Assembly: GCA_045635205.1 (NCBI GenBank)
Contig: JAZRBS010000025.1
Span: forward strand, 3,279 to 67,278
Source: Candidatus Cryptobacteroides sp.
Lineage (GTDB): Bacteria; Bacteroidota; Bacteroidia; Bacteroidales; UBA932
Direction of reading: 5' to 3'
Length of the DNA: 64,000 nucleotides
Positions 7,547-12,720 of the stretch are shown here, piece by piece (positions within the stretch are counted from its first letter, which is position 1; each line of letters opens with the position of its first letter). Made by a program: the position numbers and the translations under genes. The notes under the pieces were generated by a model. That model worked only from the letters and a program-made list of their open reading frames with translations. It was not told the DNA's origin and ran no database searches.

Positions 7547-8224
7547 TTAGCGGGCATCCGTAGAATTCGAGTCGCTCCAGATGAAACGATAGTTTATCGA
7601 TTCGCCTCCATCCACAACGATGCACTGGCCGGTGCAGAACGAGTTTTCTATGGTGAGGAAAAATGCCCATCTGGCTATTTCTTCCGCTGTAGCCCATCGT
7701 TTCAGAGGGGTCTGCTCCATAATCTGTTGCCATAATTCAGGATCGTTGACCACGCAGTCATTCAGTGGGGTAAGCACTCCTCCCGGATCAAGGCTGTTGC
7801 AGGTTGCTCCATATTCGGCTACTCTCAATGCCACATTCTTCGTGTAGGCCATAACGCCTCCCTTGCTTGCACAGTATTCCGGAAATTCCGAGCCTGTATG
7901 TGCACTTGCAGACCCGATGTTGAGTATTGACTTTATATTTTTCTGGACTCCGTATTTTTCTGTAATGCGTATGAGAGCCTTCAGATTGATGTCAATGTCT
8001 TCTTCATTCTGCGTGCCTGCATTATTGATCAGGATATCCACATCTTCGATTTCCGGCAGGTTGTCGTAATCCCTGATATCACAGATGAAATGGACGTAAG
8101 ATTTATCCTTGATCGCAGACTGCTGCCTGTCGATTCCATAGACGCAGTGCCCCTTTTCGAGGAAATGCTCTGCGATTGCCTTACCTATTCCTTGAGATGT
8201 TCCTGTTATCAATACTTTCATCAT
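7547..8224 (-). CDS. Short-chain dehydrogenase/reductase (SDR)
   Basis: TGTSQGIG, LINNAG, YCASKG catalytic motif and TGQCIVVDGG. Confidence 0.93.
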   Translation of the reverse strand: MMKVLITGTSQGIGKAIAEHFLEKGHCVYGIDRQQSAIKDKSYVHFICDIRDYDNLPEIEDVDILINNAGTQNEEDIDINLKALIRITEKYGVQKNIKSILNIGSASAHTGSEFPEYCASKGGVMAYTKNVALRVAEYGATCNSLDPGGVLTPLNDCVVNDPELWQQIMEQTPLKRWATAEEIARWAFFLTIENSFCTGQCIVVDGGESINYRFIWSDSNSTDAR

Positions 8225-8321
8225 TTCTCAGCATCAAAATACCAAGGCAAAGTTAATCAAAATTGTAAAAAACATATAACTTTGTCAAAGGAAGGCTAAC
8301 CCTATCGCCCAATCCTTTTTT

Positions 8322-8441
8322 ATGAATATAGGACTATATACTTTAACTTCACCACTTCACGACCAGAAGTCTGTGGATGCAGTTTCCGCAGGTTTCATAG
8401 CGGAAATTGAAAGTGAACTCAACTTCAGATTCGACGTCTGA
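8322..8441 (+). pseudogene. 39-codon 5' fragment, possibly of an L-fucose-isomerase-like Bacteroidales protein
   Basis: MNIGLYTLTSPLHDQKSVDAVSAGFIAEIESELNFRFDV* follows a TAACTTTG promoter motif at 8277-8284. The family resemblance is from memory and was not searched. Confidence 0.45.
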
Positions 8442-8640
8442 TAATTATATATCCGTTCCCATTTTCTAAAATCTAGAATGCCATAATTGAGGCATCTTTC
8501 GCGACGAGTTTTTGCCATAAAAAATAACTTTGATATAACCGATTTGTCAAAGTTGTCGTATATTGTTGTAGTTTAGATAATTACAAGGGTTTTACCAACC
8601 GTTTTTGGCAATTGTACCTCTATTTTGCACTGTGTTTTTG

Positions 8641-8672
8641 AAAAAAGGAGGCAACCTCACGGCTGCCTCCTT
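8641..8672 (-). terminator. Intrinsic terminator after hicB
   Basis: Minus strand reads AAGGAGGCAGCC-GTGA-GGTTGCCTCCTTTTTT. Confidence 0.85.
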
Positions 8673-8688
8673 GATACTAAAGTTCTAA

Positions 8689-9087
8689 TTATAGAGAAAC
8701 CGAACTAAGTTCGGAACCTATACAATGGATGGCGTTAAGGATTTTCCTGACAGTTTTCTCGCCTGGGTATGCTGTACCACTCTTGTACTGTCGCATCTTA
8801 CTCTCATTGATTCCGGCATATTGGGCGAATTTGCTAGCGTTGATGAAGTCAAAGTCATTGAAGAATGAAGGAAGATCATACTGGAAACTGACAGTGTAAT
8901 CTTCTATGACTTCGAACCCTTCCGCTTTAGCATCAGCAAGGGCTTCCTGTACACTTTCGTTGAAATCTTCTTTGGCAATGGCTACGGACTCGCCGAACCC
9001 TCCGAAATAATTTCCTCCGAAGTGCTGTTCTGAACGAATGGAATACATCCCGTCAGATCCTTTTTCTATTATGGCTGTTATCTTCAT
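8689..9087 (-). CDS. hicB: HicB-family antitoxin with C-terminal HTH
   Basis: MKITAIIEKGSDGMYS...GFGESVAIAKEDF, FQYDLPSFF and INASKFAQYAGINESKMRQYKSG. ATG at 9087 is preferred to the TTG at 9093. Confidence 0.88.
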   Translation of the reverse strand: MKITAIIEKGSDGMYSIRSEQHFGGNYFGGFGESVAIAKEDFNESVQEALADAKAEGFEVIEDYTVSFQYDLPSFFNDFDFINASKFAQYAGINESKMRQYKSGTAYPGEKTVRKILNAIHCIGSELSSVSL

Positions 9088-9140
9088 AATCAAATATAAA
9101 GTTCTATGTCAATGATCCTGAGTTCAAGAAGGGGCAGGGA

Positions 9141-9323
9141 CTAAATCCCTGCCTGTTTCTTGATTGCCTGTAAGGTTCCGTTTGGAATCTCTTGGCCATC
9201 GTGCCGAGGAACTGCAAATTTGTTACCAGTGATAGGTGAATACCATTTTTCGTGGCGTCCCCCTTGAGTCAGCAGGTAGCATCCGTTCTGTCTCAGCAAC
9301 TTCTTAAACTCCGAGGTTCTCAT
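9141..9323 (-). CDS. hicA: HicA-family toxin (mRNA interferase)
   Basis: 60 aa, basic, with LRQNGCYLLTQGGRHEKW, VPRH and EIPNGTLQAIKKQAGI; lies upstream of hicB. Confidence 0.93.
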   Translation of the reverse strand: MRTSEFKKLLRQNGCYLLTQGGRHEKWYSPITGNKFAVPRHDGQEIPNGTLQAIKKQAGI

Positions 9324-9345
9324 ATATCATAGAACTTTAGTAATG

Positions 9346-9367
9346 CAAAAGTAGCGTTTTTGTTACT
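9346..9367 (-). promoter_or_regulatory. hicAB -7 promoter element with overlapping imperfect palindrome (candidate HicB operator)
   Basis: TACTTTTG on the minus strand at 9346-9353; AGTAGC-N6-GTTACT at 9350-9367. Confidence 0.6.
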
Positions 9368-9448
9368 AATCTCCAAGTTTATTTTGAAAAATTTGATATA
9401 ATTCAGGAAATTTGAATGGAATAGTACCGCCTTCTGAAGATTATTGAC

Positions 9449-10642
9449 TCATTCCATATCTTCCATAAATTTTTCCTGCTTGATATATGCTATGCTTTCC
9501 TCGACGAACTGGTATCCCTTGCTGCCGGGGCGGCCTTTCTTGAGGTATAGTTCGTAATACTTCAATGCATCGTCATATTCCTTCAGCCTTTCATAGCAGT
9601 AGCCTATGGATGATAGTGCGGATATATTCTTCGGGTTGTATCTATAACTAAGTTCGTAATATTTTATGGCGGTCCTGAAGTCTTCCGACTTGTGGAAGGA
9701 CATTGCCCGGCTTCCGTATATGTTGTGCATCATCACAGGATTCGGCTCGAGCATCTTCAGAGCCTTTGCATACAGCCGCTCCGTTTCATCGTTGCTACCA
9801 TATATTCGTCTGCTCTTGGTCTCTGCAAGTTGATATACGAGCATTACATCTGACGAGTCCAACTGATAGGCCTTTTCGAACTCCCTTTCTGCCTGGAGGA
9901 TATTGTCAAGCATAAAGTGATTCAGGCCAAGGTAATACCGCACACTGTAAGTGCTGTCTCCTAGACTCAGTTGTTTCTCGAAGACTTCCAGAGATGGCTT
10001 GTACTTCTTGTCCAGGTGAAGTGCAAGTCCGTGTATCGGAAGTACGGTCATATTGTCAGGTTCCGCTTCAAGGAAAGGTCCGGTCATTTTCAGTACTTCG
10101 TCATATTTCTTCGCAGCCAGAAGGATGTCGGCTTTCTTGCTTATAGTCTTCGCGTGATGCGGTTTTATCCGAAGGAATTCATTGTAATATACCAGGGCGG
10201 AATCAGCCTTGCCTGCGAGCCTGTAGGCGTCTGCGGTCATAGCAAGGATATCGGGGATCGTATCCCTTGCTGTGATGCCACGGCATACTGTGATGCATTC
10301 TTCGTATGCCTTTTCGCGGTAGAGAAGTCTGGCCTGGGCTATCTGGAAATATAGATTGTCAGGCTGCATAGTCGAAAGCATAACCCACCATCCGTATGCC
10401 TCTTCCGAATTGCCTGCCGAAGTATGGCATTCGGCCAGTTCAGTCAACACCTCCATATCAGAGGTGTTGCGCTGAAGTGCGGCCATAAGAGTATCTATTG
10501 CCTGGTCGGTCTTGCAGAGCCTCCGTAACTGTCTGGCGTTTTCCAGTGACTGGCGCACATCGAAACTGATGCTGTCCGTCTGGGCCCGCAACGGAATGCA
10601 TAGCAGTATATATAACGCTGTCAGGACAAAGATTCGTTTCAT
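9449..10642 (-). CDS. Exported TPR-repeat protein
   Basis: Signal peptide MKRIFVLTALYILLCIPLRA and repeated TPR patterns (AIKYYELSYRYNPKNISALSSIGYCYERL). Starts 2 nt after the upstream stop. Confidence 0.85.
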   Translation of the reverse strand: MKRIFVLTALYILLCIPLRAQTDSISFDVRQSLENARQLRRLCKTDQAIDTLMAALQRNTSDMEVLTELAECHTSAGNSEEAYGWWVMLSTMQPDNLYFQIAQARLLYREKAYEECITVCRGITARDTIPDILAMTADAYRLAGKADSALVYYNEFLRIKPHHAKTISKKADILLAAKKYDEVLKMTGPFLEAEPDNMTVLPIHGLALHLDKKYKPSLEVFEKQLSLGDSTYSVRYYLGLNHFMLDNILQAEREFEKAYQLDSSDVMLVYQLAETKSRRIYGSNDETERLYAKALKMLEPNPVMMHNIYGSRAMSFHKSEDFRTAIKYYELSYRYNPKNISALSSIGYCYERLKEYDDALKYYELYLKKGRPGSKGYQFVEESIAYIKQEKFMEDME

Positions 10643-10644
10643 AA

Positions 10645-12267
10645 TCACTGCGCGTCTTTCTCAGGCTTCTTAGTCTGGAAGATCACAGGGAAGGTGAAGG
10701 TTATAGGAACAGGTTTTCCGTTCTTCATTCCCGGGGTCCAGTCCGGTGACGAACTCACGACTCTAAGTGCTTCCTTGTCGAGATCTTCGTGTACACCCCT
10801 GAGTACCTTGACATCCGTAACCTTGCCGGTCTCGGTTACTGTGAATGTGAGGGTTACTCTTCCGCATATCCCTTCTTTCTTGCAGTTTTCCGGATAGTTC
10901 AGATTTTCATTGACCCACTTGCTGAATTCGTTGGCATCACCCCCGTTAAAACTCGGTTTTGTTTCCACAGACTGAAATGGAACCGCTTCTGTGTCAGGCT
11001 TCTTAGTCTGGAAGATTATAGGGAAGGTATATGTTATCGCGACAGGTTTTCCGTCCTTCATTCCTGGGGTCCAGTCCGGTGACGAACTTACGACTCTGAG
11101 TGCTTCCTTGTCGAGGTCTTCGTGTACGCCCCTGAGTACCTTGACATCCGTGACCTTGCCGGTCTCGCTTACTGTGAATGTGAGGGTTACTCTTCCGCAT
11201 ATTCCTTCTTTCTTGCAGTTTTCCGGATAGTTAAGATTTTCATTGACCCACTTGCTGAATTTGTTGGCATCGCCCCCGTTAAAACTCGGTTTTATATCCA
11301 CAAACTGGAATGGAACCACCTCAGACTGTAATGTGTCTGTTGAGGCCTTGTCTCCAGCGATGCTGAGGGCATCCGGATTACTGATGTTGCCTGCATTGGT
11401 CTTCTGTGCGCAGGAGCCCATTGCTACGATGAGGGCTGGTATGCAGAGGAAATAAGCCAGTCTCATCCATTTGTTCGTTTTGTTCTTGTGCATCATAGTG
11501 ATTCTGTTTTTAAGTTTCGAGTGATTGAAGCCGTTGGCCAATTGGAAGCGTTTAACTCCCACGGCTTTCTTCACCAGAAGCAGTTGATATTGAGTTGCAT
11601 CGATGCCTTTGTTGATTGTAAGTTCGTCCGCTTCATATTCGTGAAGCATCTTGAGTTCCGTCCTTGCTATCCACACAAGCGGATTGTACCATTGGATAAC
11701 GGTAGCCGGTATATATGCCATCAGATCCAATGAGTGCCTGCACTGCACGTGCATCTTCTCGTGAGTCAGTATGGACGGATTCTCCATCAGGTCCTTCCTG
11801 CTTATAACGATATGTCTGCCCCAACTGAATGACGGGATTTCCGCATCCACTATCCTGACTTCGGTGTCTCCTGCCTTTTCCGGCTTCACCGACCTGATGA
11901 GACGCCTCATTCTCAGATAGGATATGGCTGTAACCGTCAGGGATACGAGGCAGCCACCTAAGAATGTGATGCAGACTATCATCTTTCCCCAGTTTATCCC
12001 GTTGTCTTCACCTATCACGGCGGCTTCCAATGTCACTGTCTTTGTCGTGAGTGCATCCTCTATCATTGTCATAGGAGTAACGGATATGGTTTCAGCCGGC
12101 ATTTCGATTTTAATGAACGGTAGAATCAGGCATAGAATGGTTCCCGTCATAAAAGTGACGCGGTTCAGGCGGAAGAAAGTTGTCTTCCGCATCACGAGCA
12201 TATACATTGACAGGAATACAGTCATATATATGCTGCTCTTTATCATATATAGTATAAGTCCGTTCAT
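10645..12267 (-). CDS. BlaR1/M56-family metallopeptidase fused to two TonB C-terminal domains
   Basis: N-terminal TM helices, HEKMH zinc motif, WYNPLVW, HEYEADE and LKNRITMM, followed by two copies of YPENCKKEGICGRVTLTFTV...WTPGMK.GKPV. Confidence 0.93.
   Translation of the reverse strand: MNGLILYMIKSSIYMTVFLSMYMLVMRKTTFFRLNRVTFMTGTILCLILPFIKIEMPAETISVTPMTMIEDALTTKTVTLEAAVIGEDNGINWGKMIVCITFLGGCLVSLTVTAISYLRMRRLIRSVKPEKAGDTEVRIVDAEIPSFSWGRHIVISRKDLMENPSILTHEKMHVQCRHSLDLMAYIPATVIQWYNPLVWIARTELKMLHEYEADELTINKGIDATQYQLLLVKKAVGVKRFQLANGFNHSKLKNRITMMHKNKTNKWMRLAYFLCIPALIVAMGSCAQKTNAGNISNPDALSIAGDKASTDTLQSEVVPFQFVDIKPSFNGGDANKFSKWVNENLNYPENCKKEGICGRVTLTFTVSETGKVTDVKVLRGVHEDLDKEALRVVSSSPDWTPGMKDGKPVAITYTFPIIFQTKKPDTEAVPFQSVETKPSFNGGDANEFSKWVNENLNYPENCKKEGICGRVTLTFTVTETGKVTDVKVLRGVHEDLDKEALRVVSSSPDWTPGMKNGKPVPITFTFPVIFQTKKPEKDAQ
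10661..11317. repeat. Intragenic tandem duplication of the TonB domain (333-bp period)
   Basis: 10661-10984 and 10994-11317 are highly similar at the nucleotide level. Confidence 0.95.
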
Positions 12268-12274
12268 AATTATC

Positions 12275-12634
12275 TTATTTACGTCTCTTTTCGATTTCTG
12301 CTATAAGTGCCTTCAATTCGTCCAGATCCATCTTTTCCTCTTCTACGAACTGCGATACCACACTTGCGTATGAATTGTTGTAATACTGCCGAACGACATT
12401 GCCGATCGTATCGCCGCTGTATTCCTTCTCCGTGCGGGCAGGTACATATATGAATGTGTTTGCGACAGGTCTTCGTGTCAGAAAACCCTTGTCTTCAAGA
12501 AACTTGACCTGGGTGGCCACAGTGTTGTAGTTCGGTTTCGGTTCCGGCATATATTTCAGTATGTCTCTGATGAACATCTCTCCGTGCTCCCAGAAGATCT
12601 TCATTATCTCTTCTTCCTTTATTGTTAGTTTCAT
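12275..12634 (-). CDS. BlaI/MecI/CopY-family repressor
   Basis: MKLTIKEEEIMKIFW, PKPNYNTVATQVKFLEDKGF and YYNNSYASVVSQFV. ATG at 12634 is preferred. Confidence 0.93.
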   Translation of the reverse strand: MKLTIKEEEIMKIFWEHGEMFIRDILKYMPEPKPNYNTVATQVKFLEDKGFLTRRPVANTFIYVPARTEKEYSGDTIGNVVRQYYNNSYASVVSQFVEEEKMDLDELKALIAEIEKRRK

Positions 12635-12658
12635 AACGTCTGAATTTATTTTACAATG

Positions 12659-12720
12659 CAAATATAGTAAGAAACAACAAAACTCCTAATAAATTTAGGA
12701 GTTTTACTAAATATTTTAGG
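12659..12720 (-). promoter_or_regulatory. blaI promoter with two tandem palindromic operator candidates
   Basis: TATATTTG on the minus strand at 12659-12666; perfect AAAACTCCTAA-N5-TTAGGAGTTTT at 12679-12705; second site ACTAAATATTTTAGG at 12706-12720. Confidence 0.75.

Follow-up and report, generated by a model that had tools for sequence, protein, structure and literature searches.

For aapA/IsoA of H. pylori and for hok/Sok, the accessible part of PMC6733600 describes masking helices that form in succession as the RNA is transcribed and give way to a long-distance 5′-3′ interaction in the full-length RNA, with a 3′-shortened RNA as the translatable form. In the literature searched, such 5′-3′ fold-back control is reported only for antisense-regulated (type I) toxins. 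The same search, whose coverage leaves out most subscription journals, found no fold-back in Bacteroidales hicAB or in any type II operon. The E. coli hicAB operon has two promoters, one of which starts transcription too close to hicA and yields a HicB-only mRNA (PMC11594946 and PMC5535158, available sections). Those sections of the HicAB review (PMC11594946) present this double promoter as the sole mechanism known in detail, and those of PMC5535158 concur. HicA(T)B of IncI2 plasmids has an internal terminator and makes ∼10-fold more hicA than hicB RNA; the accessible sections of that report (PMC11878559) describe no fold-back. Translation of the MS2 maturation gene is limited to the interval before an inhibitory long-distance helix, according to the available text of PMC4615214. 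RNA structure is also known to tune initiation in Bacteroidota (PMC6847099).

The DNA analysed here, called the window, is a stretch of 64,000 nt from Candidatus Cryptobacteroides sp. (GCA_045635205.1, contig JAZRBS010000025.1, positions 3,279-67,278 of the forward strand). It carries a toxin-first hicAB operon on the minus strand, in which hicA (9323-9141) is followed by a non-overlapping hicB (9087-8689). Its features, in the order of transcription, are as follows.

9374..9377, minus strand: −33 promoter element, CTTG here and TTTG in relatives (alignment A5), 20 nt upstream of the −7 box
9350..9367, minus strand: imperfect palindrome (6-N6-6) over the −7 box, conserved in A5; putative HicB operator, separate from the arms
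9346..9353, minus strand: −7 box TAnnTTTG, with G at −5 and the predicted +1 at 9341
9328..9341, minus strand: 5′ arm, covering 14 of the 18 nt of the hicA leader from the predicted +1
9141..9323, minus strand: hicA toxin gene, 60 aa, His24 intact; PF07927 at 60.3 bits (cut-off 27)
9300..9311, minus strand: hicA codons 5-8, the predicted partner of the proximal intergenic arm
9133..9154 (extendable to 9124-9163), minus strand: GC-rich hairpin whose loop contains the hicA stop; weak U tract; z −5.4
9120..9131, minus strand: proximal intergenic arm, which complements codons 5-8 and competes with the extended stop hairpin
9097..9108, minus strand: intergenic anti-leader arm (predicted early lock), ending 9 nt upstream of the hicB AUG
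8689..9087, minus strand: hicB, encoding the 132-aa antitoxin; HicB-type domain at the N terminus plus an HTH
8675..8687, minus strand: 3′ anti-leader arm (predicted final lock), beginning at the second base past the hicB stop
8641..8672, minus strand: intrinsic terminator with a 12-bp stem and a U tract; z −5.1

His24 is invariant among 29 HicA homologues, and the HicA profile matches PDB HicA entries, including E. coli HicA (6hpb_A). The hicB product has no match in Pfam or PHROG and none passing in NCBIfam. Its structure model (pLDDT 95.9) is matched best by E. coli HicB (E 0.012), and B. pseudomallei HicB is also among the top matches (prob 0.99, E 0.096), with no match at E ≤ 0.001; its homologues carry HicB annotation. 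By these comparisons the locus is a member of the HicAB family and not a type I system, with HicA as the putative toxin and HicB as the putative neutralising antitoxin. Close relatives are Bacteroidales, including Candidatus Cryptobacteroides. No Rfam match was found in 8200-9500, and a viral scan with the single protein returned no match. Other stretches of the window were recorded in passing. An intergenic element at 8502-8619 is repeated, occurring also in G000:C46 and G002, and its depth is raised in one DNA run. Within a TPR gene (9548-9651), one DNA contig omits 102 nt between direct repeats, equal to one 34-codon repeat in-frame. Judged from the look of the sequence, positions 10645-12661 hold two neighbouring ORFs, one for a BlaI/MecI-like repressor and one that is BlaR1-like and has two TonB C-terminal-like repeats in tandem.

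The −33 element was assigned with a published promoter consensus (PMC7366714), and the start site with the G−5 rule and its 4-5 nt spacing to the start (PMC6847099, accessible sections). With the −7 box at 9353-9346, this rule predicts +1 at 9341, and 12 of 13 nucleotides of the leader arm thus fall within the transcript. An earlier preliminary description of this DNA had taken all 13 as transcribed; the pairing itself stands, one nucleotide shorter on the RNA. Palindromes of different sequence occupy the equivalent promoter position in other clades, and the one at 9350-9367 is a candidate HicB operator. RNA contigs from two studies span 8669, 8682 or 8736 to 9310-9320, with none within 9340-9406, and carry hicA and hicB in one piece, at a depth that is flat by construction. 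Their span and the ends at 8669 and 8682 give a weak hint of a single transcription unit ending at the terminator. Short second-strain RNA contigs over hicA alone (9166-9323) were considered as a possible short RNA and rejected, as they resemble assembly bubbles. An internal hicB promoter (TAnnTTTG at 9098) was also discarded: its +1 would land inside the AUG, and it is absent from close relatives. No antisense promoter facing hicA was found; the sole plus-strand TAnnTTTG in 8300-9500 lies at 8525, with no conservation seen.

The two ends of the predicted transcript are complementary. As the preliminary description had claimed, 9330-9342 in the leader pairs with 8675-8687 at 13 of 13 positions, and the third copy is equally exact: 9328-9339 complements 9097-9108 at 12 of 12 positions, 9 nt from the hicB AUG at 9087. 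The window holds three copies of TAAAGTTCTA, the 10-mer common to the arms, where 0.11 would be expected, and three copies were never reached in 100 shuffles. The 2.56-Mb genome holds five copies, of which three are in this locus. Both the GC hairpin said to hold the hicA stop, which extends to 16 bp, and the terminator said to follow hicB are present, and the entire hicA domain has a folding z of −5.8. A GUUCU/AGAAC stem drawn locally around the hicA AUG did not hold up, being at chance level (z 0.08; 98 of 200 shuffles fold equally well). Overlooked at that stage was a 12-bp helix between hicA codons 5-8 (9300-9311) and 9120-9131, with a predicted pairing probability of 0.96-1.0.

A survey of homologues took in genomes, metagenomes and viral contigs and comprised 302 loci. 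HicA scored above 55 bits in 247 of these, and 231 were complete. An order-wide Pfam sample consisted mainly of other HicA architectures, and loci below 55 bits against the local profile were excluded. The complete loci formed 92 clusters at 80% identity; 7 were dropped and the 85 with a promoter box were divided by leader into 56 clusters with at least 14 nt and 29 that are short or near-leaderless. Two measures of a lock between leader and 3′ end were used: (i) a duplex of ≤ −13 kcal/mol between the leader's first 20 nt and the hicB stop region; (ii) an uninterrupted helix scoring at least 9 in a wider window (stop −20 to +60). Both thresholds (−13 kcal/mol and 9 pairs) were set after the data had been seen, and related clusters are not independent.

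By the first measure, a lock is found in 27 of 56 long-leader clusters and in 1 of 29 short-leader clusters, over a background of 3.1% in 3080 mismatched pairs (1.4% in the 2355 below 50% identity) and 1.3% in shuffles. The arms of the 27 change together across lineages, which is the covarying complementarity that had been proposed as a check on the pairing. The cognate arm ranks best among 27 partners in 21 of the 27 locked clusters, and the core helix starts at −2 to +4 of the predicted +1 in every one of them. The second measure finds the lock in 28 of 56 long-leader clusters, 3 of 29 short-leader clusters and 6.2% of mismatched pairs. Around half of the long-leader clusters are without a detectable lock. 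Eight named records were added later as a held-out check; of the seven that were usable, six pass the second measure, although one of these is probably a chance match within a terminator tail. In three held-out records, an intergenic and a 3′ arm occur together and have no sequence relation to those of the window, and the hicAB of Bacteroides phage BS-TP2 has the same three-copy layout (0/200 shuffles). On the tree, the lock appears in three main clades with 13 changes, so the state is not restricted to one lineage, though kin are non-independent.

Controls place the lock in hicAB. Among next-gene pairs of the window's own genome, lock-like pairing occurs in 1 of 220, and that one is the hicAB operon described here; own-gene pairs give 3 of 376, all irregular. 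For toxin-first HigB/Gp49 loci, 55 of 60 fetched loci were analysed, 49 being complete and 46 having a promoter; 0 of the 46 pass the first measure and 1 of the 49 passes the second. As judged by these sequence comparisons, the hicAB lock is real, conserved and specific. A second 3′ arm lies over the hicA AUG and first codons in L041, L051, L064, L067 and L071; as a class, such arms (9 of 56 versus 8.8% of mismatched pairs) are not over background. Where hicA is broken by stops (L021) or an ATA start (L022), the arms have decayed. In L015 (1501-1590), the hairpin and the greater part of hicA are gone, and the arms are intact.

These collections also provided internal checks of the G−5 rule. 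The predicted +1 is G or A in 25 of 27 locked hicAB loci, and the leader is exactly 0 nt in 19 of 46 HigB/Gp49 operons (L314-L373), where the predicted start falls on the toxin AUG. As a side observation, the latter suggests that leaderless toxin mRNAs are common there, although leaderless mRNAs are rare in Bacteroides. In 18 short-leader hicAB clusters (e.g. L038, L050, L052), the promoter predicts a start 2-3 nt into the hicA AUG, which would yield a HicB-only mRNA, comparable to that of E. coli P2. At L333:2125-2170, a hicAB-type 3′ arm and terminator stand behind a Gp49-HTH pair with a leader that does not match, as if one TA pair had been replaced by another.

Complementary repeats of this kind could also act as DNA, and the preliminary description had named terminal inverted repeats of a mobile mini-cassette, an invertible segment and looped HicB operators as alternatives. 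The cassette is indeed mobile: relatives have it in different flanks, and 11 loci of the neighbouring TPR gene are without it. However, homology to relatives spans ∼8641 to 9376-9409, from the terminator to beyond the −33 box. The promoter and terminator thus move with the cassette and the arms are internal to the mobile unit, which makes terminal repeats, inversion and operators unlikely. No inverted arrangement was seen among 106 loci with an arm pair, the search for inversion or excision in four DNA runs (contigs only) found no joint at the arms, and a distinct palindrome already lies over the promoter. A lower DNA depth over 8505-9525 in run X1, which might have suggested excision, came with no bridging joint.

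The pattern of change further points to RNA. Arm sequences vary freely between clades, yet complement each other within each locus. Within the helices, mismatches on the mRNA strand are G-U rather than A-C by 13:2 in the intergenic arm (p 0.004) and 7:1 in the codon arm; the 9:3 of the 3′ arm is an excess that is not significant alone (p 0.07), and the stop hairpin, at 6:8, has no G-U excess. This count is symmetric and made inside Watson-Crick-defined helices. An earlier sense-versus-antisense energy test was set aside, as its G-U/A-C count of 25:28 took in peripheral chance pairs. The 17-sequence alignment A5 has 96.2% of cells paired in the intergenic helix, with 8 double-change cells (0/500 shuffles; one pair at a gap column excluded). 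The codon 5-8 helix is paired in 83% of cells, and a synonymous GAA/GAG change is followed by its partner (AU 12, GC 5). A5 pair counts for the 3′ arm (68%) and the stop hairpin (49%) are lowered by misalignment and were unused. A role of the repeats as DNA is largely refuted, and we consider it extremely unlikely.

Folding was predicted at equilibrium, without pseudoknots or kinetics. Opening the hicA start of the window is predicted to cost 5-6 kcal/mol while hicA is being transcribed and 4.8-5.1 on an RNA that ends at the stop hairpin, but 21.9 kcal/mol once the intergenic arm has been made and 19.2 on the full-length RNA. The leader's predicted partner is the 3′ arm (probability 0.99) when the hicB interior is held open; the unconstrained fold gives 0.81 to the intergenic and 0.19 to the 3′ arm. 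Over the 27 locked clusters, the median hicA opening is 4.7 kcal/mol for nascent RNA, 12.4 for full-length RNA and 6.0 with a foreign 3′ end, with the full-length value still <5 kcal/mol in 5 of 27. Covariation and folding together bear out the RNA pairing over the hicA start that had first been suggested, and its predicted effect is masking. That the pairing masks the hicA start is very probable, and is common to three readings: that the full-length mRNA gives antitoxin only, that translation of hicB reopens hicA, and that the hicB start is freed.

On balance we lean slightly towards the first, in which the full-length mRNA is antitoxin-only and HicA would come from nascent or hairpin-ended RNA. 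It builds on what the sequences show: arms that covary, that begin at the predicted +1 and that tend to be accompanied by the stop hairpin. On nascent RNA, the hicA start would be open (5-6 kcal/mol) until the intergenic arm is transcribed, and toxin would be made. Once this arm exists, the start would be shut (16-22 kcal/mol) and the lock would later be passed to the 3′ arm. The finished mRNA, folded back on its arms and presumably blocking Bacteroidota ribosomes with that structure, would then give HicB only. Toxin dose would depend on how long the nascent stage lasts, ∼220 nt here and ∼650 nt where the 3′ arm alone exists, and by the amount of a short, lock-free RNA.

The likely end of such a toxin-only RNA is the stop hairpin, of which the preliminary description had made no use. 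Of the long-leader clusters, 26 of 31 with the lock and 5 of 25 without it have the hairpin; none of the 29 short-leader clusters has it, and it is missing from 5 locked clusters. An IncI2 plasmid carries a matching hairpin, followed by a three-U tract and GGAGG within a 24-nt gap, and by this analogy the hairpin of the window would be the same element as the internal terminator of HicA(T)B. Like its counterpart, which yields ∼10-fold more hicA than hicB RNA, the hairpin may be a source of short RNA here, either by termination or by halting 3′ trimming. The poor U tract that follows it in the window makes termination there uncertain.

The antitoxin-only model does not account for the 3′ arm in loci that also have an intergenic arm: all 12 of them retain it, the two arms overlapping on the leader. 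This association favours a switch, as first suggested for the window, in which the intergenic arm would keep both starts closed and the 3′ arm would serve to free that of hicB, such that antitoxin comes solely from intact full-length mRNA. The window itself behaves accordingly in the predictions: hicB start opening falls from 15.0 before the 3′ arm is made to 6.6-7.6 kcal/mol after, and L146 and L012 change in a similar direction. However, there is no gain in L014, L023, L147 and L150, and the median over 27 locked clusters moves from 6.0 to 4.4. In 4 of the 12 three-copy loci, 27-31 nt separate the intergenic arm from the hicB AUG, and this arm is absent from 19 of 28 locked clusters and present in 9. 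The suggestion is thus borne out by prediction in the window, L146 and L012 but not in others, and freeing hicB is quite improbable as the main job of the pairing. An intergenic lock may also exist in Bacillota: in L386 (Streptococcus phage Javan129), the leader and Shine-Dalgarno of hicA have a complementary intergenic arm (−19.2 kcal/mol), which raises the predicted opening from 4.4 to 12.2.

Translation of hicB could itself operate the lock. Ribosomes ending hicB would melt the 3′ arm and those starting hicB would displace the intergenic arm, with the consequence that HicA would be made only while HicB is translated to its end. Within the wider search window, 23 of 28 arms overlap the hicB stop or begin ≤8 nt past it, and many start in the final hicB codons. 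Placing a ribosome at the hicB stop in the model lowers the median hicA opening from 12.4 to 7.5 kcal/mol over the 27 locked clusters, with a strong drop in L079, L118, L123, L124, L125, L234 and L264, and in the window the value falls from 19.2 to 8.4 with hicB start and stop both opened. A ribosome at the window's stop alone, however, leaves hicA shut (18.4), and L041, L071 and L086, which have a second arm 15-45 nt beyond the stop, remain shut as well. The stop is moreover the earliest non-coding position and would be equally expected if the arms served as a timer, and an SD comparison (4 versus 12.6 nt) is partly circular because positives were chosen in a stop-centred window. We regard this reverse translational coupling, and the dependence of HicA on completed HicB that it implies, as unlikely.

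Finally, the duplex could mainly control RNA decay, either by capping the 5′ end and so guarding it from end-dependent decay, or as a cleavage site for RNase III or for HicA. The 3′ arm pairs almost precisely up to the predicted +1, and HicA has a dsRNA-binding-domain fold (PMC11594946, available sections). Nonetheless, a local hairpin could cap the end as well and a partner 650 nt away would be unneeded, the extra arms target the AUG and first codons, and the feature was not found in other promoter-proximal genes of the same genome. A principal role in decay is highly unlikely.

The antitoxin-only model can be extended to one bicistronic mRNA that would serve as toxin message, then antitoxin message, then toxin message again, a possibility that we put forward tentatively and hold to be somewhat doubtful. 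HicA would be made briefly while the RNA is nascent, and a 5′-capped reservoir would afterwards yield HicB alone. When transcription stops, by loss of the element or phage shut-off, trimming back to the hairpin at the hicA stop would strip every lock together with the antitoxin gene. If true, a type II system would kill in the manner of hok and need neither an antisense RNA nor proteolysis of the antitoxin.

Toxin-first type II operons must secure an excess of antitoxin and still release toxin despite a stable antitoxin, and a fold-back lock would offer an RNA-level answer to both. It occurs in about half of the sampled long-leader Bacteroidales hicAB clusters, many of them on prophage contigs. 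The lock blurs the boundary between type I and type II systems, suggests a function for the hairpin that these loci have in common with IncI2 HicA(T)B, and makes the locked loci natural cases of long-range control over Shine-Dalgarno-free initiation.

Several described systems share parts of this arrangement. As in aapA/IsoA and hok/Sok, the full-length mRNA pairs 5′ to 3′ over the toxin start, here as judged by covariation and folding prediction. Unlike in those systems, the antitoxin of the window is a protein encoded within the fold-back, and the pairing has no Shine-Dalgarno that it could mask. As far as the accessible sections of PMC11878559 describe it, IncI2 HicA(T)B resembles the window in its toxin-first hicAB order and in a GC-rich hairpin over the hicA stop. 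The IncI2-type loci examined differ in being without a 5′-3′ lock, having a local leader-codon hairpin instead. When seven non-Bacteroidota loci were folded, the leader/3′ duplex beat most shuffles in one, a Salmonella plasmid locus (3/200). A separate observation concerns plasmid hicAB of Enterobacterales and Vibrio (L382, L384, L402, L404, L403), where the mRNA 5′ end complements hicA codons 4-6. That helix would enclose the Shine-Dalgarno and AUG at a predicted opening of 10-12 kcal/mol; it has a compensatory variant in Vibrio and goes unmentioned in the same sections of PMC11878559.

The timer of the MS2 maturation gene resembles the proposed mechanism in that toxin translation would be confined to a window before the helix forms. 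MS2 differs in being a viral RNA with a local 5′ UTR cloverleaf, in which no second gene is freed or protected. A functional parallel may also be drawn to E. coli hicAB, where the toxin-first problem is solved by an mRNA that yields HicB and not HicA. Unlike E. coli, the locked Bacteroidales loci would do so by RNA structure and from a single promoter, whereas the 29 short-leader Bacteroidales clusters resemble the E. coli route of a start site too close to hicA.
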